A stretch of 53,648 bases of DNA, from contig CAMWQN010000004.1 of the NCBI GenBank assembly GCA_947176385.1, positions 1 through 53,648 of the forward strand, given 5' to 3'. Made by a program: the position numbers and the translations under genes. This document shows positions 4,187-48,544 of this stretch, in pieces. A model generated the notes under the pieces. The model ran no database searches, was not told the origin of the DNA, and saw only the letters and a program-made list of their open reading frames with translations. This DNA is from an uncultured Rickettsiales bacterium (GTDB taxonomy: Bacteria; Pseudomonadota; Alphaproteobacteria; Rs-D84). Each line of letters opens with the position of its first letter. The stretch's first letter is position 1.

Positions 4187-6667
4187 TTAAAACTTGTTAT
4201 GTGTTTTTACAAATGCACGCATGAATGATGCGTCAAAGTTCTGCATGATTTCAGACAGCGAATATCCACGCGAATTGTCGGGCGCAATATCTAGTTGAAT
4301 TGTGACCGGTGTTGGTGCAGTTCCACGCATTGTTATATCAAATGTTGCAGTCATCATTGATGATGTTATACCCAATCCACCAACCGCATCAGCATGACGC
4401 ATTTGCAATGTAATTGGTTTTGTTGTTATGAAATCACCGTTTTTATATTCGCCGGCGACAAATGCGTTTTTGATGCGTGTTTTGCCACCATCCAATGCGT
4501 CTGCCAGGACATATTCTGCATTCAGGCGGGTTATGTTTTCCGCCGATGCATAGAACCCATCCAGCCCCAGCCCCATAATATATCCGCCATCAAATATCAT
4601 TTCTATATTGCCGGATAAATTATATTCCAGGTCATGTGCAATATATCCAGATGTTGTTAATTCAATGTCTGCGGTGATTGTGCTGTCTGTAATATTCAAT
4701 GGCATTTTTGATGACAGTAATGCGCCATTGGTTACAAATTTATTTAACTGTAATGATATGTCGTATTCTGTTTTTTTCTTTTCAATTATCGCCAGCATGT
4801 TTCCGCGTGCATTGTCAGTGATTGAAAATGCCTGGACGCCGGGCTTTAATGAATATGTAAAGTTTTGATATTCTGCGCCGTTATATATAATCCGGTCGGC
4901 GGATATGAACACATTTGTGTTTAAATCAAATGGTATCATAATCGGGGCATTGGCTAAGAATTGTAATTCGTCATAGTTATCAATAAAGCCTTGATTTATA
5001 AATGTATCCAGATTTAACAGTGTGGTGTTCAGGCGGATTGCGTCACCTGTATATGTGCCGGTAAATGTATGACCGCCGATTTCGATTTTTAAATCAGATA
5101 TATTCTTGTTACTGTATGTGCCGGAAATCGTATATCCCATATCATCTATAGATTGCAGGTCCAGGTGTGGAAACAAATCTTTGATATTTGTACCGGTCAT
5201 ATAAAAACGGTTGCCGGACAATGACAAAAACCAACGACCTGAATGTGGTGTGAAATCCATTGTGTCATTATCACGCCATGAAAAATCGCCAATGTCATCA
5301 GTCATAAAATTTGGTAAAAATTTAAAGTTGGGATTTAACCAAGACATAGTTTTGTCTTTGGCAAATGTGTATTTGGGGGTGGTCGATTTTGTATCGATAT
5401 TGATTGTGCCGCCCATGTCGGCGAATTTAAATGTAATTGTGCCACGTGGTGCTAAACGTGATGTGTGCCGTGCGATAACATCATTTGTAGGCATTTGATT
5501 TGGGGATGCGACAACCAGGTTAAATGTATTGTTTTTTACAGAAATCTGACCGCGGATGTCACCCCATGTAAATTGTTCGCATGTCCAATTTTCGGGTGTG
5601 CCTGAAAATACGCATGTGGCGCGGATGCCTTCGTATGGCATTTGTATAATCATGTTGTGGGCGCCATTTTTATCAATTGTGCCGCCAGTAATTGATATGT
5701 CATCGGCAATGATTTTTTTGATAAAAACCGCTTCATCCGTACCATTTGCCACAATCTGTAAATGATTAAAGTTATATTTGCCGAATGATAAATTGCCATA
5801 AAAATCCAAATCGAACGATGTGCGTTGCAGCAACGTAGACGGATTTGCCAGGAATGAAAAATCAAAGTCTAAATCCTGGGCAGACATTTTTATATTGCGT
5901 GCCCCATCCGGCATCAGTTCAATGTCGCCATGGACGGTATCATTTGCATAGATGTCTGAAAATTTAAATCCGTATTCGCCGTCCCAATCAAAGTTTGTTG
6001 TCATGCGAACGCGCATGTTGATTTTGGGTTCTGAAAATTGAAACCAGCGGTTTATGTCATTTGTATCAATTGCCATGCGACCACGTGCGGTGCCGTCTGA
6101 GTACAACTGACCAAAGATTTCCAGATTATCATTTTGGTTATGGATATAGAATTCATTATCTGCAAAATGAATTTCATATTTATGTTGGTCTGTGCGAATA
6201 TTGCCTGTCAATTCCCCGGCAGACAGGCGTCCGCGGACGATAGTATATTGCTTGCCCAGGAATTCGACAGATGTATTATATATTTCAATATCATGCTTTA
6301 ACGGCATTGTTTCCAATGTATCAATGCGCATTTGACCGCCGTGTATTGCGATATTGCCGGTCAGACTGGCAGATGCCAAATCAAATGCAGCAGACAATGG
6401 CACAGAAAATGCAACATTACGTATTTGCCCCAGCGGCGTTTCAACATCGTGTGCGACAATTGTTGCGCGCCCTAACATACTGAAATTTATATCCCCACGG
6501 ATTATGGCATTGACGCCGGTTTGCTGAATAATTGCCGATTGCAGTTTTGGCTTTAACGCGTTCAAGTTTATCATTGGGGGGATAATAACCACACCAACCG
6601 CAGTCATGCCCAGAATGCTTGTCAGGGTCCACAGTATGCGACGTTTGTATCTAGGTTTTAATGCCAT
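4187..6667 (-). CDS. AsmA-family outer-membrane biogenesis protein
   Basis: 826 aa. A basic N-terminus and a single TM helix (RRILWTLTSILGMTAVGVVIIPP) are followed by LKPKLQSAIIQQTGVNAIIRGDINFSML, which is typical of AsmA N-domains. The remainder is long and predicted beta-rich. Confidence 0.6.
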   Translation of the reverse strand: MALKPRYKRRILWTLTSILGMTAVGVVIIPPMINLNALKPKLQSAIIQQTGVNAIIRGDINFSMLGRATIVAHDVETPLGQIRNVAFSVPLSAAFDLASASLTGNIAIHGGQMRIDTLETMPLKHDIEIYNTSVEFLGKQYTIVRGRLSAGELTGNIRTDQHKYEIHFADNEFYIHNQNDNLEIFGQLYSDGTARGRMAIDTNDINRWFQFSEPKINMRVRMTTNFDWDGEYGFKFSDIYANDTVHGDIELMPDGARNIKMSAQDLDFDFSFLANPSTLLQRTSFDLDFYGNLSFGKYNFNHLQIVANGTDEAVFIKKIIADDISITGGTIDKNGAHNMIIQMPYEGIRATCVFSGTPENWTCEQFTWGDIRGQISVKNNTFNLVVASPNQMPTNDVIARHTSRLAPRGTITFKFADMGGTINIDTKSTTPKYTFAKDKTMSWLNPNFKFLPNFMTDDIGDFSWRDNDTMDFTPHSGRWFLSLSGNRFYMTGTNIKDLFPHLDLQSIDDMGYTISGTYSNKNISDLKIEIGGHTFTGTYTGDAIRLNTTLLNLDTFINQGFIDNYDELQFLANAPIMIPFDLNTNVFISADRIIYNGAEYQNFTYSLKPGVQAFSITDNARGNMLAIIEKKKTEYDISLQLNKFVTNGALLSSKMPLNITDSTITADIELTTSGYIAHDLEYNLSGNIEMIFDGGYIMGLGLDGFYASAENITRLNAEYVLADALDGGKTRIKNAFVAGEYKNGDFITTKPITLQMRHADAVGGLGITSSMMTATFDITMRGTAPTPVTIQLDIAPDNSRGYSLSEIMQNFDASFMRAFVKTHNKF

Positions 6668-9547: not shown

Positions 9548-9583
9548 AAAAAAATTTCCGTGATTTTTTCACGGGGATTTTTT
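9548..9583. terminator. Bidirectional terminator
   Basis: A run, TCCGTGA-TTTTT-TCACGGG, T run. It abuts the stop codon of the minus-strand ftsA-rpe gene. Confidence 0.7.
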
Positions 9584-11363
9584 AATTGTTTGGACCGGGT
9601 AACAGTGATTGTACCGCCAATGGAAAATCATTACTGCGTGCCAGGTATGAACCACTGACCAGATAATCTGCACCGGCTGCCCAGCATAGTTTTGCGGTTG
9701 CATCATTTATTCCACCATCGACAGATATTTTGAACTTTAAATCCAATTGTTTGCGCGCGGCATTTAATATTGCAATTTTTTTAACACAGGCTGTATCAAA
9801 TTCTTGACCGGCGGCACCAGGTTTTACAGTCATTACCATGATTTCATCAACCTCGTGCAATATTGGTTTTAATATTGCGGGCGACGATTCTGGATTTAAT
9901 GCGATTCCGGCGCGACGTCCGGCAGCGCGTATTTTGCGCACAGCGGCATATACCCCGGATGTGTTTGTTGATACGATTATTGTATTTGCACCGGCGTCAA
10001 TTGCGTCCGCTGCCCAGACATTTGGACTTTCTGTCATTAAATGGACGTGCAGGTGTGCATCAGTATGGGCGCGTATGTATTTTAATTCTGATATGCTGCC
10101 AGCCATTTTATCAATATAAAATCCGTCCATGATATCAACATGAATCATTGAAATGCCGCCGGCGCGAAATGTTGAATATGTTGATTGGGCACGCATGTCA
10201 AAGCATAATGTGCTGGGCAATATTGGTATAAAACGCATACGACGACGTGGCTTCCTGCGTTGGAACATTGTGCTGATGTGCTTTTGCAGTTTTTGCCAGC
10301 GTGCACGTCGTGCCAGATATGCATCCCGGTGTGCGGATTCCATGCCCCATATGTATTCTGATAATGATTGGACGGATGTATCTGTTCGCAATGCATCAGT
10401 CGGCAGACTGAATGCATTTTCAAAGAATTCGGACATGTATTCTGTTTCTGCACCGCCACCGGTCAGAATTATTTTAGTTGGCTTATATTTTGTAATTGCT
10501 GCTGTGGACTGAATCTTTATTTTTTCGATAATATCCAATATGCATGGGATTACAATATCGTTTACATCTGCACGTGAAAAATCGTATGCCGTATCCGCGG
10601 GGGTAAATCTGTCCATTTCGCGTGGTATCATTGATGCGACAGTGCGTTTTATTCTGTCGGCATCTGCAACTGATGTATTTAGTTCATGGGCAATTTGGCT
10701 GTTTATATCATTGCCACCCGATGGGACTGACATTTGCCAGACGGGACCACGGTCTGTCCAAATTGATGCGATTGTTTGGGCGGCCCCCAGGTCGATAAAC
10801 ATCATTGATTGTCCGGCTGGACGTTTGACAGCATTGTGTAAAAAATGGGGGGCAAAGAAAGCCTCAGCCTGGATGTGTGCGCGGCGCAATATCGATTGGA
10901 TTTCGTCGAGTCGCGCCCGCGGATAGAAAATTGCCCCGAATATAGATTTTAATTTATGGTCAATATGTCCCACGGGTGATGACAGGTCGCGTGCCCCAGA
11001 TATGTCATATCGCAATGGTATAATATGCATTGGATAGTATTCATCTGGTGGGGTGATTTGACTGATTTGTTCACGAACATCAGCGGCTGTTATTTTGTGT
11101 TCCGTATTCCAAGCCGTGTCACGTACGCACATTTCAAATTTTGGTGCACCAAAGTTTCCGGTAATATATGCACTGTCAAAATGGCGTCCGATTTTATTTT
11201 CCAGTTCATCAACGACCGCCTTTAATGCGAACACCGTATCCGTATTATCAATGGAATATGCCGCAGAATTATCAATATGACCGGAACGGACGCGGTGGGC
11301 AACACCACGTACACCGTTCGTGCCAATGTCCAGACATAAAAAAGAAGAATCAAACAGGTTCAT
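9582..11363 (-). CDS. ftsA: FtsA (actin-like cell-division ATPase) fused to a ribulose-phosphate 3-epimerase-like domain
   Basis: N-terminal half carries LDIGTNGVRGV, FIDLGAAQT, VPSGGNDINSQIA and ILTGGGAE. C-terminal half carries ILPSTLCFDM, IHVDIMDG, HVHLM, VKPGAAGQ and SVDGGIN. It is a single uninterrupted 593-codon ORF, 7 nt downstream of ftsQ. Confidence 0.8.
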   Translation of the reverse strand: MNLFDSSFLCLDIGTNGVRGVAHRVRSGHIDNSAAYSIDNTDTVFALKAVVDELENKIGRHFDSAYITGNFGAPKFEMCVRDTAWNTEHKITAADVREQISQITPPDEYYPMHIIPLRYDISGARDLSSPVGHIDHKLKSIFGAIFYPRARLDEIQSILRRAHIQAEAFFAPHFLHNAVKRPAGQSMMFIDLGAAQTIASIWTDRGPVWQMSVPSGGNDINSQIAHELNTSVADADRIKRTVASMIPREMDRFTPADTAYDFSRADVNDIVIPCILDIIEKIKIQSTAAITKYKPTKIILTGGGAETEYMSEFFENAFSLPTDALRTDTSVQSLSEYIWGMESAHRDAYLARRARWQKLQKHISTMFQRRKPRRRMRFIPILPSTLCFDMRAQSTYSTFRAGGISMIHVDIMDGFYIDKMAGSISELKYIRAHTDAHLHVHLMTESPNVWAADAIDAGANTIIVSTNTSGVYAAVRKIRAAGRRAGIALNPESSPAILKPILHEVDEIMVMTVKPGAAGQEFDTACVKKIAILNAARKQLDLKFKISVDGGINDATAKLCWAAGADYLVSGSYLARSNDFPLAVQSLLPGPNN

Positions 11364-11370: not shown

Positions 11371-12060
11371 TTACTTTACCAAAATTCTGGCGCTGTCGCG
11401 CATGTCCAGTGTGCGAATATCTTTGGATAATATTTGATGATTCTTGTTCAGAACAACCAATGTGCCGATTGCGCTTATTGGGTCGTGTTCCGGTAACATT
11501 ACTTTTATGCCGCCGGTTGTATGCAGATTCCAGCGTCTGTTTTCAATCCATTCCAGATAATCAACATCGCCCGCCAGATTTTGTGCGGCACGTGTTATTT
11601 TATCAATGTCATTGGGTAATTTGCCCTGGAATAAAATTGTGCCAGGTGCACGTACATCCGTTGGTTTGTTTACAATTGTGCCATCTGCGGATAATGGATA
11701 AAAACTGTCACCGTCGGTCCATAATGCAACCGCCTGGTACAGTTCTGCACGAATTGTCAGATTCCCATCTGGACGACGGCGAACCGCACTGTGACGAACG
11801 CCAGGAACCGCTGCAACGCGGGCGTTCAGGTTGTCTAAATCAATCGCATATACGTGTGTGCCGGGGGCAATGCCAGCAGCAGCAGCAATTGATGCCCGAT
11901 CTTTGTTATTGGTATCGGTTGATATTGATACACGATGAACCTGGGCGATGTATCCGTATCCCATTGTCGTCATGATAATGCGGGACGAAAAATAAATCGC
12001 CAACAAAATTGATAAAACAAAAAATAACCAAAACCAAATATTGCGCTTCATGGCGGACAT
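11371..12060 (-). CDS. ftsQ: Cell division protein FtsQ
   Basis: N-terminal TM helix (IWFWLFFVLSILLAIYF), a POTRA-like segment (VYAIDLDNLNARVAAVPGVRHSAVRRRPDGNLTI), and a position directly upstream of ftsA. Confidence 0.75.
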   Translation of the reverse strand: MSAMKRNIWFWLFFVLSILLAIYFSSRIIMTTMGYGYIAQVHRVSISTDTNNKDRASIAAAAGIAPGTHVYAIDLDNLNARVAAVPGVRHSAVRRRPDGNLTIRAELYQAVALWTDGDSFYPLSADGTIVNKPTDVRAPGTILFQGKLPNDIDKITRAAQNLAGDVDYLEWIENRRWNLHTTGGIKVMLPEHDPISAIGTLVVLNKNHQILSKDIRTLDMRDSARILVK

Positions 12061-12484: not shown

Positions 12485-12621
12485 GTCTTATATTATAATT
12501 TAATTGCGTTATGGTGGCAATAGTTTTTATAATATAGTAAAATCATTTGTGTGTACGTCTGCTTGTAATCATTAGTCACACATAAATCATTTTATACTAA
12601 GTGAGAGAAAGGAAGTATTTT

Positions 12622-12948
12622 ATGGCTATAACCGTTCAGAACTTTATCAAATTGGCAAATTTTTATAACCAGATGACAATGATGATGTCTGCGATATGCG
12701 TTCAAAAGGGCGGAATTGCAATGGAAAATTATGTGGGACGTTTCTTTGCGGCAGATGCGTTGGAATTTATTTCAGAATATGGACGCCGCCTGCGTGAGGA
12801 TAAACGTAACCAGATAACGCCACAAATTGCGACACTGATTGACCGGTTTGAAGAGCAATATAATCGCGTACGGGATTTAACCACCCCAACGCAAAAGCCG
12901 ATTTATGAAATGACGCTGGAAGAATTTGAAAAAATTATGAATATTTAG
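12622..12948 (+). CDS. Hypothetical protein
   Basis: ATG 12622 preceded by GAGAAAGGAAG. First gene of a tightly packed co-directional unit. Confidence 0.5.
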   Translation: MAITVQNFIKLANFYNQMTMMMSAICVQKGGIAMENYVGRFFAADALEFISEYGRRLREDKRNQITPQIATLIDRFEEQYNRVRDLTTPTQKPIYEMTLEEFEKIMNI

Positions 12949-12979
12949 CATAATGGGAAAAAGACCTAAGGGGAAATAG

Positions 12980-14326
12980 ATGATTTTTGTTAAACAGATT
13001 TTTCAGAAAATTTGTGCTGTGACTGTTTTGGCGTTGTGTTGTGCATGTCAACCACAGCAACAAGAAATGGATGTGCCCCAGTATGATACGATAAATGTCG
13101 TTGAAAATCTGGTAATTGATGAAAATTCTGTTCCAATCTTTCCGAAAAAGGCGGCGTTGACAACTGATACTGCGCGCAGGTTTTCAATCGAACTGCCAAA
13201 GCGTTGTACGGTTGACTGGAACAATCAATCGGTTGTGTCTGTTGTGCCGGCGGAAAAGATTGAAATTGTTCGCCTGAATGTTGGTGACGCGTTGCCACAA
13301 CTTGCGGTATCTGACTATGAATTTAAGCAATTAACGGTAAAGCAAGCGCTGGATAAGTTATTGGTTGGCACAGACGTTGATGTTGTTGAAGATGGTGATT
13401 TAATCGAAAAAATTACAGGTACGATTACCGCGGGTAATCTGTCAGATGCGGTTGAACTGATGTCCAGAATGGGACGCGTATATTATTCATATGATGCTGT
13501 AACAGGCGAAATTCATTTAAATCCGCGTGCAAAATGGATGATAAAGATGCCGAAAGACGAAAGTATCATTATGGCATTATTGGATGCAATGCATGGGGCG
13601 GATTTACGTAATCTGTTGGTTGATTGGCAGGACAAGACCGTCGTATTCGAAGGTAATTATCAGACAGAACGCGAGGTTGCACGTATCATTGCGGATGTTT
13701 CGTCTAAAAAGTATATGATTGCATGGGATATGGATGTATATCGTGTATATCCACGTACAGACAATCCGATAATCTGGATGAATATGCTGCCGGCATTTGG
13801 TACCAATAATATCAAGATGTCAATTCCTGGTGTTGTTGGTCGTGCGCTGGTTGTGGGACCGGAAATTAACACAAAAACACTGCAAGAATTTATGGCACAG
13901 CAGGCAAATGTTGTTTTGATATCCCAGGGACGCTTTGTGATTCCAAACGGGTGGCAGTCGCGATTTGATATTGGTGAATGTGGCAAAGAAGAACGGTTAG
14001 AGACCGACTTGGTTGTTGGTGCAACCGGTAAATATGGGGACTTTGGCGGATTCAAAAAAATTGATGCTAAAATAGTGCTGCGTACAAGTCAGGGTGAATT
14101 GTCATCGTTTAATATCCCATCCAGCGTAGGGGATAATTATGTAATTGTTGGTATTCCGACACATTCATTTGTTACAACGCCGGAAACACTGGTCAGTCCG
14201 TTTGCAGAATTGGTTGTATTTATGTCGCCACGTATCATTTCGATTGTTGATCCGGCGGATATTCCAAATGATCAATATACACCACTGGCAGGTGATGCAT
14301 TGCGTGCATTCTTAGGGGAAGAATAA
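12980..14326 (+). CDS. Hypothetical exported (probable lipo)protein with a secretin-like C-terminus
   Basis: The signal sequence ends in LALCCAC-Q. The C-terminal region VGDNYVIVGIPT...TTPETLVSPFAELVVFMSPRII resembles the end of secretin domains. The stop lies 1 nt before lolC/E. Confidence 0.55.
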   Translation: MIFVKQIFQKICAVTVLALCCACQPQQQEMDVPQYDTINVVENLVIDENSVPIFPKKAALTTDTARRFSIELPKRCTVDWNNQSVVSVVPAEKIEIVRLNVGDALPQLAVSDYEFKQLTVKQALDKLLVGTDVDVVEDGDLIEKITGTITAGNLSDAVELMSRMGRVYYSYDAVTGEIHLNPRAKWMIKMPKDESIIMALLDAMHGADLRNLLVDWQDKTVVFEGNYQTEREVARIIADVSSKKYMIAWDMDVYRVYPRTDNPIIWMNMLPAFGTNNIKMSIPGVVGRALVVGPEINTKTLQEFMAQQANVVLISQGRFVIPNGWQSRFDIGECGKEERLETDLVVGATGKYGDFGGFKKIDAKIVLRTSQGELSSFNIPSSVGDNYVIVGIPTHSFVTTPETLVSPFAELVVFMSPRIISIVDPADIPNDQYTPLAGDALRAFLGEE

Positions 14327-14327
14327 A

Positions 14328-15581
14328 ATGTTTTCAAAACTGGAACGTAAAATTGCATTTCGATATTTAGCCGCAAAAAAACGCGGATTTGGTTCTGTGA
14401 TTTCATGGGTGTCATTGATTGGGATAACGCTGGGGGTTGCAACGCTGATTGTTGTTATGTCGGTCATGGGCGGGTTTCATGATACGCTGCTGTCACGTAT
14501 TGTCGGTATGAATGGTCATGTTGTTGTATATCACCAGGATGGCGCAATAAATGACTATGATTTCTTGATTGATAAAATGAAACAAAATCGTGTTGTGGCA
14601 TCAAATGCGACAGCAATTGTACCAATCGCCGAAGGACAGGTTATGGCGACCGCAAATGGTAACAGCACAGGCGCAATGATACGCGGTATTCGTATGTCAG
14701 ATTTGGCAGCAAAAGCCACAACCGGTACGCGTATTTATGGTAAACCATTGGAAGCAATTCATGACGGCGAATTGGTTGGTGGTGCAACATTAACCCGCAA
14801 TTTGCGTGTCACAATGGGGGATAATATTTCATTGGTATCAGCAAATGGGGCAACCCCCACGCCGTTCGGCACAATGCCACGAATAATGGCATATCCGGTT
14901 ATGTCATCGTTCTTTATGGGAATGTATGAATATGATTCTGGGTATATATTTATGCCGCTGGAAACCGCCCAGAAATATTTGAATATACCGGGTGGGGTTA
15001 CGCATATTGATCTGTTCTTGAAAAATCCCGATGATGCAAATCGTGTTGCAGATGCGTTGGCGACACTGTTGCCGGATGGATTTGTTATTCGTGATTGGCG
15101 CGATTTAAATCGTGGCTTTGTTGGTGCATTGCAGGTTGAATCAAATGTTATGTTTTTAATCTTGATGCTGATTGTAATTGTTGCAGCGTTTAATATTGTG
15201 TCAAGTTTAGTTATGCTGGTCAAAGACAAATCCAAAGACATTGCTGTACTGCGCACATTCGGTGTATCACGTCGCGCTATGATGAAGATATTTATTTTAT
15301 CCGGTACCAGTATTGGCGTAATTGGTGCGTTCTTTGGTACGATACTGGGTGTACTGATTGCAACATATATTGAACCGATACGTAAATTCTTTCAGTGGAT
15401 TACCGGGCGTGATTTATTCCCGGCAGAATTATATTATTTGTCGGAATTACCATCTAAATTGGTTGTGGGGCAGGTTGTGGCAATCGCATTAATTGCGGTG
15501 ACGCTGGCATTCTTGGCAACACTGTATCCTGCATGGAAGGCAGCATCCACAGACCCGGTTGATGTATTAAGGAACGAATAA
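14328..15581 (+). CDS. lolC: Lipoprotein-releasing ABC transporter permease, LolC/E family
   Basis: 417 aa. N-terminus FRYLAAKKRGFGSVISWVSLIGITLGVATLIVVMSVMGGF, a large periplasmic loop, and a C-terminal FtsX-type TM bundle ending YPAWKAASTDPVDVLRNE. Confidence 0.85.
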   Translation: MFSKLERKIAFRYLAAKKRGFGSVISWVSLIGITLGVATLIVVMSVMGGFHDTLLSRIVGMNGHVVVYHQDGAINDYDFLIDKMKQNRVVASNATAIVPIAEGQVMATANGNSTGAMIRGIRMSDLAAKATTGTRIYGKPLEAIHDGELVGGATLTRNLRVTMGDNISLVSANGATPTPFGTMPRIMAYPVMSSFFMGMYEYDSGYIFMPLETAQKYLNIPGGVTHIDLFLKNPDDANRVADALATLLPDGFVIRDWRDLNRGFVGALQVESNVMFLILMLIVIVAAFNIVSSLVMLVKDKSKDIAVLRTFGVSRRAMMKIFILSGTSIGVIGAFFGTILGVLIATYIEPIRKFFQWITGRDLFPAELYYLSELPSKLVVGQVVAIALIAVTLAFLATLYPAWKAASTDPVDVLRNE

Positions 15582-16292
15582 ATGTCGAATATATTGAATT
15601 CTTTGTCAAAGGTTAAACGCGGTGACGTCGTGTTGTCTGTGCGTGATATCAAGAAGACCTTTATGGAGGGCGGACAGCCATTGCCAATCTTGCGCGGGGG
15701 TGGGTTTGATTTGCACCGTGGCGAAATAATTGCACTGGTTGGGCAATCGGGTTCCGGTAAATCGACACTGTTGCAATGTGTTGGATTGTTGGACAAGCCA
15801 ACAGCGGGCAGTATTTTATTGTGCAATACACCAGCACAAAAAATGGATGATGAAATGCGCACTGCATATCGTCGTGATAAAATCGGTTTTGTGTATCAGC
15901 GGCATAATTTATTGTCGGATTTTACAGCACTGGAAAATGTTGTCTTGCCGATGTTGGCGGCTGGCGTGGATATAGATACTGCAAATGCACGTGCAATGAA
16001 ATTACTGCGGGCTGCATCGGTCGCGCATCGTGCATCGCACCTGCCAGGCGAAATGTCTGGTGGTGAACAGCAACGTACCGCCGTCGCACGTGCATTGGCA
16101 AATAATCCAGCAATACTGTTGGCTGATGAACCAACCGGCAGTTTGGATCCGGCGCATGCGGTTGCAGTATTTGATTTGTTAATGGATTTGGTGCGTAAAA
16201 ATAAAATGGCAATGTTGTTTGTGACGCATGATATGAATTTGGCAGCACGTGCAGACCGCACAATTACAATACGTGACGGCATTGTCGGATAA
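15582..16292 (+). CDS. lolD: Lipoprotein-releasing system ATP-binding protein LolD
   Basis: Walker A GQSGSGKST, GFVYQRHNLLSDFTALENV, signature MSGGEQQR, Walker B LLADEPTGSLD. It starts the base after the lolC/E stop. Confidence 0.85.
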   Translation: MSNILNSLSKVKRGDVVLSVRDIKKTFMEGGQPLPILRGGGFDLHRGEIIALVGQSGSGKSTLLQCVGLLDKPTAGSILLCNTPAQKMDDEMRTAYRRDKIGFVYQRHNLLSDFTALENVVLPMLAAGVDIDTANARAMKLLRAASVAHRASHLPGEMSGGEQQRTAVARALANNPAILLADEPTGSLDPAHAVAVFDLLMDLVRKNKMAMLFVTHDMNLAARADRTITIRDGIVG

Positions 16293-22263: not shown

Positions 22264-23595
22264 ATGTTAAAAAAACTGTTATTAATTTTTATATTGGTGT
22301 TGCCTTTTTCTGTTGTTGCAGAATCACAGGAAGTTACCATGACCCCAGTTCAGGCGGTACAATTGGCGGGGCAATTGGTTGATTCTGGTAAACTGGATTT
22401 GGCGCAACAGATTTTAACACAAATGCCGCCGATGAACAGTGTGCCACTGGAAATAGAACGGTGGTTTTTACTGGCGCAAATTTCGCAGCGCCAGGGTGAC
22501 ATTGACACCGCAATCAAGATTTATCGTAAAATTTTGGATGATCAGCCAAATTTGGCACGTGTTCGTTTTGAATTGGCGGTATGCTATATGCATCAGAAAA
22601 AATGGCGCAGGGCGGATTATCATTTACGCCTGGCGATGGCAGGGGGGGATTTGCCAGATAATGCAAAGCAGATGATGAATTATTATCGATATGTCATTCG
22701 TCAAAACAAGAACTGGAATGTGTGGTTTAATTTTGGTGCGGCGCCCGACAATAATGTTAATAACAGTGTCGGTGGCAGCGAATGTGTTATGACTATGTTT
22801 GGGTTGATGTGTCGTGATTTGGCGCAGCCTGAATCCGCAATCGGCAGTAATTTTTCCCTGGGTGGAAATTATGAATTTAAGTTGTCTGATAATTGGCGAT
22901 GGAAATCGGACGCAAACATTTACACAAATATTTATGACAAGCATGATTATGATGACCTGTATTTGTCATTATCAACTGGTCCCAGATATGTGTGGCGTAA
23001 CGGGGATATGTGGTTGGCTGGGGTTGGGTCACGCCGTTGGTATGGTTGGGATGCATATAATTGGTCGGCAGGGGTAAAGTTGGATACAAATTATGACTTT
23101 ACACGTAAATTGTCCGGTGGGCTGTATTTGCGTTTTATGGAAAATACGTATGATGAATATGGTGATATATTGGATGGTCAGACGTATTCCGCAAATACCA
23201 GATTAACATATTCGTTTAATGCCAGTGTTTATGCCACATTGCGTACTGGAATTGCACGCGAGGTTGCAAAAAATTCAATCTATTCATATTGGGCGCCCAG
23301 CCTGGGGATTGGTGTTGGTGCAGAATTACCATGGGGATTTCATGTGTATGCGGAACCATCTGTTTACTGGTCGCTGTATGATGACCCAAAGTGGGTTGTC
23401 AAAGATAGTCGGTTTAAACAAGTTACAGAACGTGATTTTACACATCGTTATTCTGTGTCCCTGTCAAACAATAAACTGGATATATGGGGATTTGTACCGA
23501 CAATAACTGTCAGTTATACAAAACGTGAATCAAATATCTGGCAACGTGAATACGATAAAACCGCGCTGGAATTTTCAATGCAGCAACGGTTTTAA
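22264..23595 (+). CDS. Surface lipoprotein assembly modifier (Slam, DUF560 outer-membrane protein)
   Basis: Signal peptide, then TPR-like repeats (GDIDTAIKIYRKILDDQPNLARVRFELAVCYMHQKKWRRADYHLRLA), then NWNVWFNFGAAPDNNVNNS opening a beta-barrel. Terminal Phe (SMQQRF). Confidence 0.7.
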   Translation: MLKKLLLIFILVLPFSVVAESQEVTMTPVQAVQLAGQLVDSGKLDLAQQILTQMPPMNSVPLEIERWFLLAQISQRQGDIDTAIKIYRKILDDQPNLARVRFELAVCYMHQKKWRRADYHLRLAMAGGDLPDNAKQMMNYYRYVIRQNKNWNVWFNFGAAPDNNVNNSVGGSECVMTMFGLMCRDLAQPESAIGSNFSLGGNYEFKLSDNWRWKSDANIYTNIYDKHDYDDLYLSLSTGPRYVWRNGDMWLAGVGSRRWYGWDAYNWSAGVKLDTNYDFTRKLSGGLYLRFMENTYDEYGDILDGQTYSANTRLTYSFNASVYATLRTGIAREVAKNSIYSYWAPSLGIGVGAELPWGFHVYAEPSVYWSLYDDPKWVVKDSRFKQVTERDFTHRYSVSLSNNKLDIWGFVPTITVSYTKRESNIWQREYDKTALEFSMQQRF

Positions 23596-32548: not shown

Positions 32549-32627
32549 ATGATGTTGCATGGGATGAGATTCTTTGATATAATCACAACAGTATTGTATT
32601 CAGGTGGAGAGTTTAAGGATAGGGCAA

Positions 32628-33020
32628 ATGAAACAAATTCTGGTTTTTGCGTTGTTTGTAATTATGTTCATGCCGCATGCATCGTTTGCGGAAATTCCAT
32701 CTGTTGATTTTGTTGATGACAAGGTTTCAACATTGTCCGATGTTGTCGATACCAAGGCAGACAATGCCGCTGTTGTTCATCTGACAGGGGACGAAATGAT
32801 TGCTGGTACCAAGACATTTGCAGGTAATGTCCACATGAATAATTTAAATGCGAATACTGATGGTGCGGTAACGTTAACAAATGCCGTTGTATCCACATCA
32901 AATGATAATCAGGTTGCAACCACCGCATGGACAAATAGTCGTGTTACAGCGGCAAAGGGTGAAATTCCTGTCGGTGGCAAGGATTCAACTGTGTTTACGA
33001 AAATCTGGATAGAAGAATAA
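32628..33020 (+). CDS. Small secreted protein with phage-tail-fibre-like motifs
   Basis: Signal peptide MKQILVFALFVIMFMPHASFA; TKADNAAVVHLTGDEMIAGTKTF and NDNQVATTAWTNSRV. Paralogous to 33301-33813. Confidence 0.6.
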   Translation: MKQILVFALFVIMFMPHASFAEIPSVDFVDDKVSTLSDVVDTKADNAAVVHLTGDEMIAGTKTFAGNVHMNNLNANTDGAVTLTNAVVSTSNDNQVATTAWTNSRVTAAKGEIPVGGKDSTVFTKIWIEE

Positions 33021-42491: not shown

Positions 42492-43388
42492 ATGAATATA
42501 TCGCGAACATGGGCATTGACCAAAATAGTTGTTCAATCACATATTCTGAATTGGTTTTGGCGACCACGTGCAGTGCGCAGCGCAGTGCGGTGTGATGTTC
42601 TGTCACGCGTTGCCCCCCAGTACTTTAAACGCTATCTGCCAGCCGCCGCGGCAGTTGTCGAGACGCCGGTCGTCAAAGATGATGAAAATGAAAAAATTTA
42701 CACCATCTGGCAACAAGGGGAAGAAAACGCACCTGAAATTGTAAAGGCTTGTTTCCGCAGTATCCGTAAACATTGCAAGCAGGAACTGGTTGTCTTGGAT
42801 GACAGCAATCTGTTTGATTATATATCATTGCCCCAGGTTATTATTGATAAATATCGTGCAGGCAAAATTCGTCGGGCGCACTTTGCCGATATTTGCCGTG
42901 TGGAATTGTTATATGAACATGGTGGATATTGGTTCGATTCAACGGACTTTGCGACTGCGCCAATCCCACAATGGGTGACGGATTTAGATTTCTTTGTATT
43001 TATGGTGGGTAATGTCGGACAACGTTATTCGTATATGCAAAACTGCTTTATCCGCGCGCGTCGTGGGGCGTATCTGTTGGCGGCATGGCGTGCGATGATA
43101 CTGGAATACTGGAAAAATGAAAATTCATGCTTTGATTATTTTATGCACCAGTTGTTGTTCAAGACTTTGGTTGAAAATGACCCGCGTGCTAAAAAGTACT
43201 TTGCTGAAATGCCACACATTGACCAGGACCCAACGCATAGTGTCTGGCATGTTTATAAACATCAGAAATTTGATAAAGATTTGTATAAAAAATTAACCAA
43301 GGATGCGTTCTTTCAAAAATGCGCCTATGCCGATAAACCATTGCCTGGCACGTTTGCTGGGGAAATGTCCAAGATGTACAAGGATTGA
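42492..43388 (+). CDS. Capsular-polysaccharide-synthesis-family / GT32-like glycosyltransferase
   Basis: IWQQGEENAPEIVKACFRSIRKHC and RRAHFADICRVELLYEHGGYWFDSTDF resemble Caps_synth/OCH1-type sugar transferases. Confidence 0.5.
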   Translation: MNISRTWALTKIVVQSHILNWFWRPRAVRSAVRCDVLSRVAPQYFKRYLPAAAAVVETPVVKDDENEKIYTIWQQGEENAPEIVKACFRSIRKHCKQELVVLDDSNLFDYISLPQVIIDKYRAGKIRRAHFADICRVELLYEHGGYWFDSTDFATAPIPQWVTDLDFFVFMVGNVGQRYSYMQNCFIRARRGAYLLAAWRAMILEYWKNENSCFDYFMHQLLFKTLVENDPRAKKYFAEMPHIDQDPTHSVWHVYKHQKFDKDLYKKLTKDAFFQKCAYADKPLPGTFAGEMSKMYKD

Positions 43389-43394
43389 TTTAAT

Positions 43395-44423
43395 ATGCCA
43401 GCAATATCGATAATAATACCTGTATATAATGTTGAAAAATATTTGCGCCGCTGTCTGGACAGTGTGTTAAACCAGACATTCACAGACTGGCAGGCGATTT
43501 GTGTAAATGACGGCAGTCCTGATGGGTCTGCCGCGATTTTATCAGAATATGCTGCACGTGACAGCCGCTTTGTTGTGGTTACCAAAGAAAACGGTGGTCT
43601 GTCTGATGCGCGTAATGCTGGGTTCCCATATGCGACAGGCGATTACATTATGTATCTGGACAGTGATGATTTTATTCATCCCCAAACAATGGAAATTGCA
43701 TATTCTTTGGCGCAGCGTGATGGGTCGGATATTGTGTCATTTACATATGACAGAATTTATCGTCCACAATTGATGGTGCGCCATGTATTAAAAATGGATA
43801 CTGATAATGTTATTCCACGTCGTATAAATAAAAAGTATAACGTGGCGCGTATTAAGACATTGGTTACCGATGATGTTTACCAATATGCAACAGAACGCAC
43901 GCATAACGCGCCAAGCAAAAAAAAGAAATGGCTGATTAAGCATTGCCAGGTATGGAAAAACATGTATCGTCGTGAATTGATTGCAGACATTCCGTTTATC
44001 AAGGGAATATTGTTTGAAGACTTCCCATGGTGGAGTGCCGTTATGTTAAAAAATCCACGTGTGACGATTGCACCACTGCCGTTGTATTTTTATATTCCGA
44101 ACTTTGGTGGCATTGTTCTGGGTGCAAAACAGTTGCGTATTATGCAAAGTCTGTGCATAGGCGTACGCACGGCATACACGCTGTATAAAGAAAGTGCCTC
44201 AGAATACCAAATGATGATGTGGTCTAAAAATTTCCGGTGGTATTTTATTAACTGGGCATTTCGTAAAATTAAATATCTGGATAATGATGCGGATTTGGAA
44301 AGCGCACGTGAATGTTTTCGTGATTTAAAGCGTGTTGGGGCATTGGACGGGGCAGATTCAAAATTCGCACATGATTTGCGCTTGAAAATATTGGCATTTA
44401 TTGATGGAACAAAAGCAAAATAA
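43395..44423 (+). CDS. Glycosyltransferase family 2
   Basis: ISIIIPVYNVEKYLRRCLDSVLNQTFTDWQAICVNDGSPDGS...GGLSDARNAG...YLDSDD. Confidence 0.85.
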   Translation: MPAISIIIPVYNVEKYLRRCLDSVLNQTFTDWQAICVNDGSPDGSAAILSEYAARDSRFVVVTKENGGLSDARNAGFPYATGDYIMYLDSDDFIHPQTMEIAYSLAQRDGSDIVSFTYDRIYRPQLMVRHVLKMDTDNVIPRRINKKYNVARIKTLVTDDVYQYATERTHNAPSKKKKWLIKHCQVWKNMYRRELIADIPFIKGILFEDFPWWSAVMLKNPRVTIAPLPLYFYIPNFGGIVLGAKQLRIMQSLCIGVRTAYTLYKESASEYQMMMWSKNFRWYFINWAFRKIKYLDNDADLESARECFRDLKRVGALDGADSKFAHDLRLKILAFIDGTKAK

Positions 44424-45568
44424 TGAAAAAGTTCAAGGTCGCATTTTGTTTGCGTGATATGCAGGTCGGCGGGGTAGAGGCTGTATTTGTTAAAATGATG
44501 GATGCACTTCTAGATCAGGATAAATATGAAATCGTTCTGATTACTTATGTCGATTTGCAAGAACCTGTTTATTTGGATTGGTTGCGTAACCATCCACAGA
44601 TAAAGCGTATTACGTTATACCCATCACGGTGGTTTGGAACGCGTTTGGCACATTTCTTTTTGTTGCGATTGATTCAGCGCCTTGTGCGGGATGTTTATCG
44701 TTGGTGGCGTCGGATGCGAATAAATGACAGCACGTTTGCTGATATTGATTTGTTTGTTGATTTTTATGATTTCGGGTTTGAACGCGAATTTCGTAAATTG
44801 CATAAACCTAAAATTGCGTGGTGGCATTCATCAATCAATAAATTTCATAATGGAAATTATATTGCACGGACAAATGTGTATGACAGGTTGGTTATGCTGA
44901 CCGATGGGGCTGCAAATGAACTGCGTATGCGATATCCTGCGATTGGGGACAAGGTTTTGCGTATTTATAATCCGGTTGATGTTGATGATATCCGTCGTCG
45001 GTCTGTAATGGCGCCAACACCGATTGATGGGGACTATTTCTGTGCGGTGGCAAGATTGTCGTTGGACAAAGATATCGTTACAATTCTGCGTGCTTTTGAT
45101 ATGTTTTGGAATCAGGCAGGGCGACCTGATGTAAAAATGGTTTTTGTTGGGGATGGTGACAGGGCAGATGAATTTAAGTCTGTCGCGGCATCGTTATCTG
45201 CGTGTGGTCAATTTGTATTTGTTGGCATACAATCAAATCCATTTATATACATGCATGGCGCGTTGGCGCATGTATTGTCCAGTCACAGCGAAGGGCTGGG
45301 GATGGTTGTTATAGAGGCTTTAGCCGCAGGATGCACAAATATTGCATCTGATTGTAAAAACGGACCGCGTGAAATATTATTAGATGGCAAGATTGGATTG
45401 TTGTATAAACCGGGCAATGTTTCTGAGTTGGCGTCGTTAATGTCAGATGTTTGGACGCGTCGGGACATGGGATGGAAATCCGCTGATATAAAACGCAGTT
45501 TGGCACGATTTGATGCTGATAATATCGCCTGTGATATTTCGCGTTTGTTTGATGATGTGATGAAATAA
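44423..45568 (+). CDS. Glycosyltransferase family 4 (GT-B)
   Basis: SHSEGLGMVVIEALAAGCTNIASDCKNGPREILLDGKIGLLYKPGN (E-x7-E region). The start overlaps the upstream stop. Confidence 0.8.
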   Translation: MKKFKVAFCLRDMQVGGVEAVFVKMMDALLDQDKYEIVLITYVDLQEPVYLDWLRNHPQIKRITLYPSRWFGTRLAHFFLLRLIQRLVRDVYRWWRRMRINDSTFADIDLFVDFYDFGFEREFRKLHKPKIAWWHSSINKFHNGNYIARTNVYDRLVMLTDGAANELRMRYPAIGDKVLRIYNPVDVDDIRRRSVMAPTPIDGDYFCAVARLSLDKDIVTILRAFDMFWNQAGRPDVKMVFVGDGDRADEFKSVAASLSACGQFVFVGIQSNPFIYMHGALAHVLSSHSEGLGMVVIEALAAGCTNIASDCKNGPREILLDGKIGLLYKPGNVSELASLMSDVWTRRDMGWKSADIKRSLARFDADNIACDISRLFDDVMK

Positions 45569-45570
45569 TA

Positions 45571-45603
45571 AAAGGGCGCTGATGCTAGCGCCCGTTGTTT
45601 TTT
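45571..45603. terminator. Bidirectional terminator between convergent glycosyltransferase genes
   Basis: GGGCGCT-GATGCT-AGCGCCC followed by GTTGTTTTTT. Confidence 0.75.
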
Positions 45604-46432
45604 AAATTCCTGTTTCTTGAAAGCGTTTTGGTATTGTCGTTACCCATTTTAATCCCAGCATTGCAGGTTTGTTCCAATCATATATTGGTCGCAAAATTGT
45701 TTGCATTATGCGGGCAAGGGGGCGCGACATATTTTTATTGCGCGCGCGGGTAATAATTGTAATTGTGCGTGCACGTTTTTGTAAATGCTTTTCCCAGGAT
45801 GCGGTGCGGTCGCCCAATTTGTTTTTTATCATATCCATATCAACTGAACCAAAATGTAGCAGATACAGATTTTTATCAATATGGAAATTGTGTCCTTTGA
45901 CGCTGTGAAAACCGCTGCCCCATGTGGCAGGGCGGAATAATACCACAGGCTTGGTATATCGTGTGGACATCAGTGCATATTTGCGTTGGGATAAAAATGG
46001 TTTATCCATATCCAGGGCGGTTTCAGAATTTAAATCCTGACCTACATCCAGTCCCAGTCCCGACAAGGTTGTTTTAACTTTTTTGCTGGCAAGATATTCG
46101 GCAAGCGTCATATTTAAATCCGGGTCAACAACCAAGAATTCATCACAATCGCAACCGATTACAATATCATATCCATCATCAAATAATTTTTTTGCCAGGT
46201 CTGACAATAACAATATGCGTGTTTTATCGCCACGTTGGCGGGCTTCATCCTTGTGTGGTAATTTTGTTATGTGTGCGCGTCCGGAACCTGACGGTGTTTT
46301 TTGGTCCAGACCATCCAGGTATATATACAAATTTTCATCGCCAATTTGTTCGCCGTAATATTTAATCCAACGATTTAAAAAGAATTCATCGTTTCGCGCC
46401 ATTGTGATTGCGGCGATGCGTTTTGTGGTCAT
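45602..46432 (-). CDS. Glycosyltransferase family 2-like protein
   Basis: RIAAITMARNDEFFLNRWIKYYGEQIG..LYIYLDG and GCDCDEF. I chose the start at MTTKR (46432), which forms an ATGA overlap with the upstream stop. Confidence 0.5.
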   Translation of the reverse strand: MTTKRIAAITMARNDEFFLNRWIKYYGEQIGDENLYIYLDGLDQKTPSGSGRAHITKLPHKDEARQRGDKTRILLLSDLAKKLFDDGYDIVIGCDCDEFLVVDPDLNMTLAEYLASKKVKTTLSGLGLDVGQDLNSETALDMDKPFLSQRKYALMSTRYTKPVVLFRPATWGSGFHSVKGHNFHIDKNLYLLHFGSVDMDMIKNKLGDRTASWEKHLQKRARTITIITRARNKNMSRPLARIMQTILRPIYDWNKPAMLGLKWVTTIPKRFQETGI

Positions 46433-47274
46433 ATTTCCCTCTTTATTATCTTTGGGATTGCGTATGTTATACCGCGCCACATCAGACGCAATGGATTGCG
46501 GGTCATCAATTTTGATATATATTCTGTGCCCCATGTGTCGCAGGCACCATTCATAATCGCGTCGCGGGCTGCTTTGTCACAGTGGCGCATTACATAATGT
46601 AACTGTCCGCCCAGGCAACCATTGTGACGGGTAAATGCAACCTTTTTTATAAATGGTACGCCGATTTTAAACATGTGTTTTACACGATTATAAACACTGC
46701 GTCCTGGCATGTTATACAGGCACCGCCAGTTAAACCCATGTTTTGTAATCAGGTTGCTTAATCCATGTTCATACAGAATTGTGACCGACCCCTTGTCCGG
46801 GACGTGTTTTACGGACAGCATAAATTCATCAAACCAGGGGGCTGTGAATATTTTTTTGCGCAGACCCACAAACCATGACTGAATATGCGGATGCGCGTGG
46901 TGCAGATTACCAACCAAACCAAATGCTGGGGTATCAATTGATTCCATCTGGTCGAATGTAGGCGTCAGGTCCATCAATGGTCCAAACACAGAATCATTTA
47001 CCAGATACATTATGTCGTATTTTTTTATATCCAGATTATCCCGTGCCCAAATATATGCACGCTTGTATGAACCGAAATCATATTCGCGATGTCGAGATGC
47101 GCCGGCGTATAGTGTGTATGGTGCCAGTTTTTTTAATTCGGATTTTGGCGCATCGCAATCCATATACAGCACAACATCGCCCAATTCGGACAGGGCACGC
47201 ACATAATACGTTAACGCTGCGTCAACGCGGTTGGTTGCACTGTATCCAGCAAATATAAACAGTCTTTTAGTCAT
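46429..47274 (-). CDS. Rhamnan-synthesis-protein-F (RgpF)-like polysaccharide biosynthesis protein
   Basis: LFIFAGYS....VDAALTYYVRAL, YDFGSYKRAYIW, YLVNDSVFGPL. Confidence 0.55.
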   Translation of the reverse strand: MTKRLFIFAGYSATNRVDAALTYYVRALSELGDVVLYMDCDAPKSELKKLAPYTLYAGASRHREYDFGSYKRAYIWARDNLDIKKYDIMYLVNDSVFGPLMDLTPTFDQMESIDTPAFGLVGNLHHAHPHIQSWFVGLRKKIFTAPWFDEFMLSVKHVPDKGSVTILYEHGLSNLITKHGFNWRCLYNMPGRSVYNRVKHMFKIGVPFIKKVAFTRHNGCLGGQLHYVMRHCDKAARDAIMNGACDTWGTEYISKLMTRNPLRLMWRGITYAIPKIIKREI

Positions 47275-47338
47275 AGCATTTTTTTCTTTTTATAATTATA
47301 ATACGCATCAGGTATTATTTTCAACAAAGGAATATAAA

Positions 47339-48544
47339 ATGTATGCGCCCCAGGTGTATTCTGATAAATCATATTCGCGTTGGTTTCGCAGACGTGTTGC
47401 GTCCCAGCGTATATTGCCGGAATCATTGGATGTTGTAAGTAACGCTGTTATGGTAAACCAGGGACGGTTTGGGTATGGTGTATATGACGCAGCAGGGCGA
47501 TTGGTTCAAAATTCACGTCAGATTCGTGGTCGTGATAATCAAATTGTGCACGCACACATGGATTTTCCGGCGGACACACCATACATTGATGCGGATGTAA
47601 TGTATTTAGGCAATGTTTATCCACAATTTGGGCACTTTATGTTGGAACATATGAACCGCGCATGGGGGCTTTTGCGCCCGGAATGCGCGGGGCGCAAGGT
47701 TGTATTGATAAATGATAAGCATATAAATCCCGTACCTGAATACATGTATAAATTTATTGAATTGATGGGTGTGCCGCGGTCAGATATTATCATATTAAAT
47801 GAAACAACACGTTTTCGCAGTGTTGCGGTTCCCAGCCAATCATTTGAAATTGACCAGTGGGCGAACGCGGTATTTTCATCGGCATTTGAACATATTGCAG
47901 AAAACGTCAAAGACGGTTCAAAGTACGAAAAAATTTATATGTCGCGTGATGCGCTGGGGGAGCGTCGCACATATGGCGAGGCAGCCGTTCAACGTATCTT
48001 TGAAAAGAATGGGTTTAAAATTATACGTCCTGAAACATTGTCATTAGACAAGCAAATTGCATTGATGAAAAATTGCAAAGTACTGGCAGGGTGTGCAGGT
48101 ACCGCATTGCACATGGCTGTATTTATGCCCCGTTTTGGCACCGTTATTCAAATAAAGCGTAATCGCGTAGATAAAGACAGTGGACCGACCCAAGAACTGA
48201 TTCATCGGTTAAAGGATATTCATGGGATATTTATTTCCGGTTCAATTGAATCAGAAAAAACTGACCATAGCACAGTTGCACCCCAGGTAATCGGTGTGAC
48301 AAAATATATGCGTCAATTTTTCGACGATAACGGATTTTCGTATGACGCGTCGGATTTAATCCCCGACAGCGGCGAATTGGCAGAATACGCCGCCGCGCGC
48401 CGCGCGTACCGCGCGCGGTTCGGCAGTGTGCGTTTTAATAAATTCAAGCATATGATGATAAAACTGTCTGCATGCACGATTCCGGGGCGTGAACGCCGTG
48501 GTCGTTATCGTGCATACATGAACAAATTATTAAAGGTCAGTTAG
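47339..48544 (+). CDS. Glycosyltransferase family 61 / DUF563 protein
   Basis: QFGHFMLEHMNRAW, IYMSRDALGERR, LAGCAGTALHMAVFM. I chose the start at ATG 47339. Confidence 0.6.
   Translation: MYAPQVYSDKSYSRWFRRRVASQRILPESLDVVSNAVMVNQGRFGYGVYDAAGRLVQNSRQIRGRDNQIVHAHMDFPADTPYIDADVMYLGNVYPQFGHFMLEHMNRAWGLLRPECAGRKVVLINDKHINPVPEYMYKFIELMGVPRSDIIILNETTRFRSVAVPSQSFEIDQWANAVFSSAFEHIAENVKDGSKYEKIYMSRDALGERRTYGEAAVQRIFEKNGFKIIRPETLSLDKQIALMKNCKVLAGCAGTALHMAVFMPRFGTVIQIKRNRVDKDSGPTQELIHRLKDIHGIFISGSIESEKTDHSTVAPQVIGVTKYMRQFFDDNGFSYDASDLIPDSGELAEYAAARRAYRARFGSVRFNKFKHMMIKLSACTIPGRERRGRYRAYMNKLLKVS

Follow-up and report, generated by a model that had tools for sequence, protein, structure and literature searches.

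The window analysed here is a 53,648-nucleotide stretch of contig CAMWQN010000004.1 (assembly GCA_947176385.1), from an uncultured Rickettsiales bacterium of the order Rs-D84. Its minus strand carries, at 9582..11363, a single gene in which a sequence related to the division protein FtsA is joined in frame to a ribulose-phosphate 3-epimerase (Rpe). The open reading frame (ORF) starts at an ATG, runs uninterrupted over 593 codons (593 amino acids) and is separated from the upstream ftsQ gene by exactly 7 nt (TAA-GAAAGTT-ATG). A sequence-only reading of this DNA had described a 593-codon frame 7 nt from ftsQ and had quoted motifs of both families. Frame and GAAAGTT spacer were both read in the sequence, the minus strand being added here, and the quoted motifs all stand where they had been placed: those of FtsA (LDIGTNGVRGV at residues 11-21, FIDLGAAQT at 189-197, ILTGGGAE at 299-306), the basic stretch (352-377) and those of Rpe (ILPSTLCFDM, IHVDIMDG, HVHLM, VKPGAAGQ, SVDGGIN). 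The base composition is uniform along the gene.

Relatives of the fusion protein were searched among 5.8 billion proteins. The search returned 796 of them, and the best 120 are all about 590 residues long, 60-95% identical and equipped with both Pfam domains; these 120 come from NCBI, ENA, JGI and Logan assemblies. The relatives that bear a name in NCBI are called "ribulose-phosphate 3-epimerase". A relative is encoded by 291 GTDB species-representative genomes, the best 80 of which are labelled Candidatus Enterousia, uncultured gut Alphaproteobacteria or "Rickettsiales", including the circular long-read sequence OZ007020.1 (958,618 bp). An exhaustive HMMER search over 1.84 billion cluster representatives placed the full-length fusions in about 20 clusters (at 50% identity), down to 30% identity, and only stand-alone Rpe proteins were ranked below them. 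All the full-length relatives lie in the order Rs-D84, the divergent clades being found in gut metagenome-assembled genomes (MAGs) labelled "Rickettsiales bacterium", with isolate codes including Ncb351, Hm464, Gsp477 and Pcl387. The same fusion, which the sequence-only reading had proposed to seek in related genomes, is present in these hundreds of full-length relatives.

The continuity of the gene was examined in the Rs-D84-type loci, and a single stop-free frame spans the whole query in all of them (111/111). The sole gene that appears to be split (P0136, in locus L164) corresponds to a scaffold gap of 10 Ns, after which the frame continues; a stop or frameshift between the two halves, which had been named as a possible objection, is found in none of the 111 independent assemblies of related loci. 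The other short or split matches (P0132, P0122 and more) resemble fragments from contig ends or reads with frameshifts. We conclude that the fusion is real, old, vertically inherited and characteristic of the reduced-genome gut order Rs-D84, including Candidatus Enterousia. Enterousia has been placed in this order, whose members are fermentative and have genomes below 1 Mb (PMC12306168). Contigs with the fusion and with Rs-D84 synteny were also seen inside MAGs labelled 'Muribaculaceae' (L002, L083) and 'Bacteroides fragilis' (L043), and these are probably mis-binned.

The two halves both match the families to which they had been assigned, by Pfam, NCBIfam, PDB profile and Foldseek comparisons alike. 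For the C-terminal half, residues 383-574 align with positions 4-197 of the 198 positions of the Pfam model Ribul_P_3_epim (PF00834) with an E-value of 8e-42, and the rpe subfamily model NF004076 of NCBIfam gives 167.3 bits, marginally above its cutoff of 165. With the Rpe of Streptococcus pyogenes (2FLI), the profile comparison gives an E-value of 2.6e-37 and Foldseek a template modelling (TM) score of 0.92, with a root-mean-square deviation of 1.4 Å over 211 columns. Alignment with E. coli Rpe indicates that Ser384, His408, Asp410, Met412, His441, Met443, P515-G-x-x-G-Q, Asp549-G-G and G571-S are kept. The metal and catalytic ligands announced by the sequence-only reading are accordingly all present, namely the tetrad His408, Asp410, His441 and Asp549 (intact in 243 of 247 sequences), Ser384 and the Met cushion (residues 412, 443 and 510/512). 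At least 238 of the 247 sequences share the phosphate loops P515-G-A-A-G-Q520, D549-G-G551 and G571-S572. On these sequence features the barrel appears catalytically competent. The Rs-D84 genomes are reported to encode MreB, RodA and most steps of the non-oxidative pentose-phosphate pathway, transaldolase excepted (PMC12306168), and the barrel is presumably the housekeeping Rpe of this pathway. Neither the window nor 2.05 Mb of Rs-D84 loci contains a second Rpe or a second FtsA-like gene.

The affinities of the barrel were compared with a profile of the fused barrels. In this comparison (loci L109-L160), whose sample is biased by the search pattern, Firmicutes-type or unclassified stand-alone Rpe proteins score 185-211 bits, above those of Rhodospirillales, Acetobacteraceae and Rickettsiales (151-179) and above E. 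coli Rpe (123). From these sequences, the barrel may have been acquired horizontally. The FVPN motif of the beta2-alpha2 loop is present in 33 of the 40 stand-alone Rpe proteins compared, and a few stand-alone Rpe (L115, L117, L118) have an FVD-type loop in its place.

The N-terminal half reaches 38.4 bits with the Pfam model FtsA (PF14450), above the gathering cutoff of 31.8, so that each half hits its family significantly. The model TIGR01174 (ftsA) matches residues 36-337 with an E-value of 7.5e-17 and 61.5 bits, under its equivalog cutoff of 175.85. Passing the first model and falling short of the second, this half is described as a divergent member of the FtsA family and not as a standard equivalog. 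A profile built from this half of 21 diverse family members and searched against the PDB retrieved FtsA first, over residues 11-323 (7q6f with an E-value of 1.6e-26, 3wt0, and 1e4f with 9e-21). The same profile matched PilM (2e-14) and MreB (4e-11) over the second half only. In the Foldseek search the top 19 matches are all FtsA, with TM scores of 0.64-0.73 (target-normalised) versus 0.53 for PilM; 1e4g is found with an E-value of 1.6e-22 and 7q6f with a TM score of 0.73. The model SHS2_FTSA, whose gathering cutoff is 25.4, gives 33.2 bits with P0142, a divergent member of the family, and a weak match (17 bits) with the window protein. The ATP-binding motifs are present as phosphate-1 (D12-I-G-T), phosphate-2 (D191-L-G-x-x-x-T197) and adenosine (G302-G-G-A). 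About 240 of the 247 relatives keep them, whereas the P0139/145/146 clade and P0135 have lost them. Judged by these profiles and by the predicted fold, we regard the N-terminal half as a divergent but genuine FtsA, which would be the only FtsA of the cell and would work in division.

FtsA, the actin-like protein through which the division machinery is anchored to the membrane, is among the most studied proteins of division. The amphipathic helix at its C-terminus is considered to be the membrane anchor, and a control of divisome activation by its oligomeric state has been proposed. The region where such a helix is expected was analysed on an AlphaFold2 model calculated from a 33-sequence family alignment (mean predicted local distance difference test, pLDDT, 92.2; predicted TM score, pTM, 0.60). 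In this model an actin-like domain with a pLDDT above 90 extends from residue 1 to about 350, a long helix covers residues 343-367, residues 369-375 are disordered (pLDDT <50) and a (beta/alpha)8 barrel occupies residues 378-588. The family consensus of residues 354-367 is DRWQRRTN-WIGKIF, the window protein reading ARWQKLQKHISTMF, and E. coli FtsA ends with GSWIKRLNSWLRKEF, as verified from NC_000913.3. An alignment with one gap pairs W356 of the window protein with W408 of E. coli FtsA, N361 with N413, W362 with W415, an I with an L, K365 with K418 and F367 with F420, which is the last E. coli residue. The hydrophobic moment of residues 352-367 is 0.63, versus 0.62 for the E. coli FtsA helix. 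The basic stretch, proposed earlier to stand at the position of the FtsA membrane helix, indeed resembles the E. coli helix, and residues 352-367 would be a relic of the C-terminal membrane-targeting helix of FtsA, now internal.

The net charge of residues 352-378 ranges from +6 to +13 among 187 sequences, with a mean of +9.7. The connector is followed by F378-I-P-I-x-P-S, which is strand beta-1 of Rpe, and residues 368-377 would correspond to the former ftsA-rpe intergenic spacer together with the N-terminus of Rpe. Since this anatomy (helix, short Lys/Arg spacer, Rpe beta-1) fits read-through, the fusion most likely arose by loss of the ftsA stop codon and translation into an adjacent rpe. 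We also considered an internal start at Met376, from which the barrel could be expressed separately. An AGGAAG lies upstream of it but is distant, and this candidate was rejected because Met376 is not conserved (Q, P, T or A in relatives).

The ratios of nonsynonymous to synonymous substitution rates (dN/dS) were calculated between the window gene and relatives at 95% and 88% amino-acid identity. They are 0.04-0.07 for the FtsA core, 0.08-0.19 for the linker and 0.015-0.04 for the Rpe barrel. In the 187-sequence alignment, too, the barrel is the most conserved region of the protein and the connector the most variable one. Both halves are under strong purifying selection.

Some lineages have lost key residues of one half or of both. 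P0140 keeps the FtsA motifs and has lost the Rpe tetrad and phosphate loop (NxD...NLM...IYDI); its C-terminal half retains the length of a barrel, and the lolCE...lipoprotein-ftsQ-fusion synteny is unchanged. P0135 has lost key residues of both halves (for Rpe, YxT...VCGD) and recurs unchanged in sequence on three contigs, derived from independent samples (ENA and JGI), in full synteny with the window. These two lineages are AT-rich and the full-length barrel is still in frame in both. Finally, the P0139/145/146 clade has lost the Asp residues of phosphate-1 and phosphate-2 in FtsA and has kept the Rpe residues. Taken together, these cases indicate that either catalytic centre can decay while the fused architecture persists, and the retention of the barrel in two lineages without catalytic residues hints at a role beyond catalysis. 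The sequences are suggestive of a partial dependence of each half on the physical presence of the other.

In its genomic context the gene is paired with ftsQ. In 80 of 81 loci, and likewise in the divergent ones, ftsQ lies directly upstream of the fusion, mostly with a gap of 0-18 nt, and the pair is intact even at loci whose flanking genes are rearranged. No ftsZ lies downstream of the fusion or within 10 kb of it at any locus; the dcw (division and cell wall) cluster is reduced to ftsQ-ftsA(::rpe). The lipoprotein gene that opens the operon has no match in Pfam or NCBIfam; it is found upstream of ftsQ and on the same strand in most Rs-D84 loci, the most divergent ones included, and may encode an undescribed divisome-associated lipoprotein. 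The promoter proposed ahead of it is a consensus match only, promoter-like sites being no more frequent over the region than expected from shuffled sequences. At the other end of the operon, the minus-strand stem 9574-9558 (CCGTG-AAAAAAT-CACGG), followed by AAATTTTTTT, stands directly after the stop codon of the fusion. This hairpin is likely the operon terminator, and a candidate bidirectional one. All the features are collected in Table 1.

Table 1. Features of the lipoprotein-ftsQ-fusion operon, in window coordinates and in the order of transcription.
Feature	Coordinates	Strand	Description
Putative operon promoter	12492..12520	-	TTGCCA, 17 nt, TATAAT; 11/12 consensus matches; 5' of the lipoprotein gene
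Predicted lipoprotein, 126 aa	12104..12484	-	Lipobox LLGAC; first gene of the lipoprotein-ftsQ-fusion operon
ftsQ, 229 aa, POTRA and FtsQ/DivIB C-terminal domain	11371..12060	-	PF03799 E-value 3.5e-9; POTRA_1 E-value 1.7e-4
FtsA core, residues 1-350	10314..11363	-	Actin/ASKHA fold with 1C (SHS2) subdomain
Putative relic membrane-targeting helix, residues 352-367 (RRARWQKLQKHISTMF)	10263..10310	-	Cationic, amphipathic
Lys/Arg-rich connector, residues 368-377 (QRRKPRRRMR)	10233..10262	-	Disordered
Rpe (beta/alpha)8 barrel, residues 378-588	9600..10232	-	Pfam, NF004076, PDB, Foldseek
Variable 5-residue tail and stop codon	9582..9599	-	Sequence, alignment
Hairpin with T-runs on both strands	9549..9583		Between the convergent fusion gene and tsaE

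The surroundings of the operon were also inspected. Divergently from the ftsQ operon, positions 12601-16292 of the plus strand encode two ORFs of 115 and 448 residues without a family match, then LolC/E (TIGR02212, 414 bits) and an ABC ATPase, in a conserved cluster; the Pfam 'FtsX' match obtained in this segment is the Lol permease and not the division protein FtsX. In L165, the closest relative (95% identity), an extra ORF of 155 residues without a Pfam match (5086-5553) is inserted between the fusion gene and tsaE. Further along the window, a homologue of Slam (surface lipoprotein assembly modifier; PF04575, E-value 7e-37), with TPR_Slam, is encoded at 22264-23595 (plus strand) and is also found in the divergent locus L162. 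An ORF of 138 residues at 32604-33020 (plus strand) matches, over a short segment, the N-terminal domain of a phage lower baseplate protein (BppL_N, 29.7 bits) and is isolated amid housekeeping genes. Five glycosyltransferase or capsule-synthesis genes (Caps_synth, GT2, GT1, GT2_4, GT61) lie beside recA at 42492-48544, a cluster worth noting in a genome below 1 Mb that lacks most biosynthesis. The remainder of the window is ordinary housekeeping chromosome.

From these results we estimate at about three in four the probability that the gene encodes a real bifunctional FtsA::Rpe, in which a divisome FtsA and a housekeeping epimerase are held together at the membrane, loss of a stop codon in the Rs-D84 ancestor being the most likely origin. 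In the scheme that we propose, rpe would have been immediately downstream of ftsA, at the position normally occupied by ftsZ. The stop codon of ftsA would have been lost in the ancestor of Rs-D84, translation then proceeding through a short spacer into rpe and the targeting helix of FtsA becoming internal. This helix and the basic patch would hold the protein at the membrane, and would therefore hold the enzyme there too, with a divisome role for the N-terminal half, as FtsA, and a housekeeping role for the barrel, as Rpe. The data fit both a neutral fusion of neighbouring genes and a real coupling of their functions. As to the origin, we lean slightly towards a frozen accident of genome streamlining, followed by some dependence on the barrel.

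Several findings weigh against the bifunctional reading or against parts of it. The FtsA half is very divergent, with 16-18% identity to the solved FtsAs, and falls far below the TIGR01174 cutoff. The GGGTG[ST]G signature and phmmer with E. coli FtsZ revealed no ftsZ in the stretches searched, which were the window (53.6 kb) and 108 Rs-D84 loci (2.05 Mb). The description of the two halves as sole FtsA and sole Rpe is drawn from the 2.05 Mb around the fusion locus and from the pathway summary of one paper. Regarding the helix, the hydrophobic moment of residues 352-367 is unexceptional within the protein (rank 123 of 551) and lends no statistical support to a membrane helix. Because it is so ordinary, the argument for such a helix is one of position and of motif resemblance. 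Moreover, the P0141/142/144/148 clade is devoid of the helix and has a short basic, proline-rich linker instead. Regarding the origin of the gene, no ancestral unfused ftsA-rpe pair was found, and for this reason the stop-loss scenario is deduced from the junction itself. Finally, the barrel scores 147.8 bits with the equivalog model TIGR01163, whose cutoff is 212.6, and its beta2-alpha2 loop, DG-x-FVPN(I/L)(S/T), is replaced throughout the family by DGFY(V/I)D(K/R)(M/I)AG. Given this altered loop and the shortfall in score, the substrate or the activity of the Rpe could differ.

According to a first alternative, the barrel would be a working part of the Rs-D84 FtsA, either an oligomerisation hub clustering FtsA at the membrane or a pentose-phosphate sensor linking division to the supply of precursors. 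The fusion would then be maintained for this role, beyond the separate need for each half. We consider this possible, and on the whole improbable; it overlaps with the bifunctional reading, the dispute being limited to the neutrality of the link. In favour of coupling, none of the 111 loci shows a fission, although the radiation they sample has the depth of an order, with identities down to 30%. Fusions of essential genes can, however, also persist neutrally, because re-splitting them needs several coordinated mutations. The lineages P0140 and P0135 keep an in-frame barrel without the catalytic tetrad, which speaks for coupling but could also be slow decay; the loss of the FtsA phosphate Asp residues in the P0139/145/146 clade, with the Rpe residues kept, is a further point in favour of this alternative. 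No other part of the protein is as conserved as the barrel, whose remodelled beta2-alpha2 loop is common to all the fused members. Yet the catalytic site is perfectly conserved in almost all of them, dN/dS is very low, and ordinary enzyme function explains this fully. Metabolic enzymes are known to regulate division elsewhere (UgtP, OpgH, KidO, GdhZ). On the opposite side, Rpe is also found fused to an unrelated neighbour, RuvX, in other organisms. In the structural model, the pTM of 0.60 and the disordered connector offer no confident packing between the domains. A functionally relevant tethering of the epimerase, or of a repurposed sugar-phosphate-binding module, to the divisome, as imagined in the sequence-only reading, would belong to this alternative.

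In a stronger version, the divisome would have come to depend on the Rpe barrel for its structure or its regulation, the barrel being an oligomeric hub or a pentose-phosphate sensor wired to FtsA through the internal helix and thereby coupling division to the pentose-phosphate pool. Rpe is normally oligomeric, and so is the closest Rpe, that of S. pyogenes. Such a module would explain both the retention of the barrel without its catalytic residues and an FtsA without a free C-terminal helix; we regard this proposal as doubtful.

The N-terminal half could alternatively be a PilM-like or sugar-kinase-like ASKHA protein, foreign to the divisome and partner of the epimerase in metabolism or pilus biology. 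We judge this very unlikely. It draws on the weak match to FtsA models (TIGR01174 under its cutoff, and the Pfam models PilM_2 and MreB also matching the C-terminal part of this half) and on the absence of an adjacent ftsZ. Profile and fold comparisons nevertheless rank FtsA first, over the full length including the 1C/SHS2 subdomain, with PilM and MreB restricted to the second half or lower in TM score. In addition, ftsQ always accompanies the gene, at a distance of 0-18 nt, and the linker resembles the membrane-targeting helix of FtsA. A sugar-kinase identity was rejected, no such family being matched in Pfam or NCBIfam. Type IV pili are reported only in a different lineage, UBA9783 (PMC12306168). 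Lastly, the fusion could be an artefact of this one contig, either a chimeric assembly or a false in-frame junction produced by an indel. Nothing speaks for an artefact but its prior plausibility for a single MAG contig, and it can be dismissed almost entirely, the same architecture being found in hundreds of independent assemblies from varied pipelines and sources (including the circular OZ007020.1), all 111 loci being intact, and purifying selection spanning the junction of a gene of uniform base composition.

Full-text literature searches (FtsA with Rpe, divisome fusions, Enterousia, Rs-D84) returned no description of an FtsA-Rpe architecture, in agreement with the initial statement that no described FtsA was known to carry a pentose-phosphate enzyme domain. 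The only genome-biology paper on the Rs-D84 group makes no mention of FtsA, FtsZ or cell division (PMC12306168). What is new is an FtsA to which an enzyme of central metabolism is appended and whose targeting helix appears to have become internal, in sequences that are public and annotated only as Rpe. An entire order of gut bacteria would bury the helix of FtsA inside the protein, with a normally oligomeric enzyme of 24 kDa attached to it. A functional link would join the divisome covalently to the pentose-phosphate pathway, as no other is known to do, and would amount to a natural experiment on the tolerance of FtsA to cargo. If the link is neutral, it would provide a clean and datable case of gene fusion by stop loss during genome streamlining. 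Whichever way the link works, there is a practical annotation problem: since public records name only "ribulose-phosphate 3-epimerase", FtsA is silently missing from the annotations of Rs-D84 and Enterousia and from the metabolic and cell-biology reconstructions derived from them.

The fusion protein can be compared with several known systems. It shares with canonical FtsA (E. coli b0094; Thermotoga maritima 1E4F/4A2A; Vibrio maritimus 7Q6F) the actin-like fold with the FtsA-specific 1C/SHS2 subdomain, the phosphate-1, phosphate-2 and adenosine motifs, and the position of the gene right after ftsQ; immediately behind the core it has a putative cationic amphipathic helix similar to the one that targets E. 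coli FtsA to the membrane. It differs from the solved FtsAs by the low identity given above and by a core shorter by about 35 residues. The putative helix is internal instead of C-terminal, without a long flexible linker after the core; an enzyme domain is appended, and ftsZ is not the next gene. PilM, the ASKHA protein of type IV pili (2YCH, 5EOX), has an FtsA-like fold with a 1C-like subdomain, and Pfam PilM_2 matches weakly the C-terminal half of the FtsA-like region. Its profile and fold scores are lower (E-value 2e-14, TM 0.53), and the gene context here is ftsQ and not pilN/pilO.

With stand-alone Rpe (S. pyogenes 2FLI, E. coli Rpe, PF00834), the fused barrel has in common a complete (beta/alpha)8 barrel, the catalytic tetrad, the Met cushion and the phosphate loops. 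It differs by about 377 additional N-terminal residues, by the altered loop and by a score under the TIGR01163 cutoff, and it scores nearer to the Firmicutes-type than to the alphaproteobacterial Rpe (in the biased sample mentioned above). Other fusions of Rpe exist in the databases, with 6-phosphogluconolactonase (P0235), with the Holliday-junction-resolvase-like RuvX (P0222) and as an Rpe-CBS pair (P0262). They indicate that partners can be attached at either terminus of the barrel, even a neighbour of unrelated function such as RuvX, the partners being different from that found here and none of them cytoskeletal or divisomal.

Finally, UgtP of Bacillus subtilis, OpgH of E. coli, and KidO and GdhZ of Caulobacter are metabolic enzymes that moonlight as division regulators. 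The likeness is that an enzyme of central metabolism, or a protein homologous to such an enzyme, associates physically with the early divisome. These proteins are separate polypeptides, shown experimentally to act on FtsZ, whereas the Rs-D84 enzyme, known here from its sequence, is covalently fused to FtsA itself.

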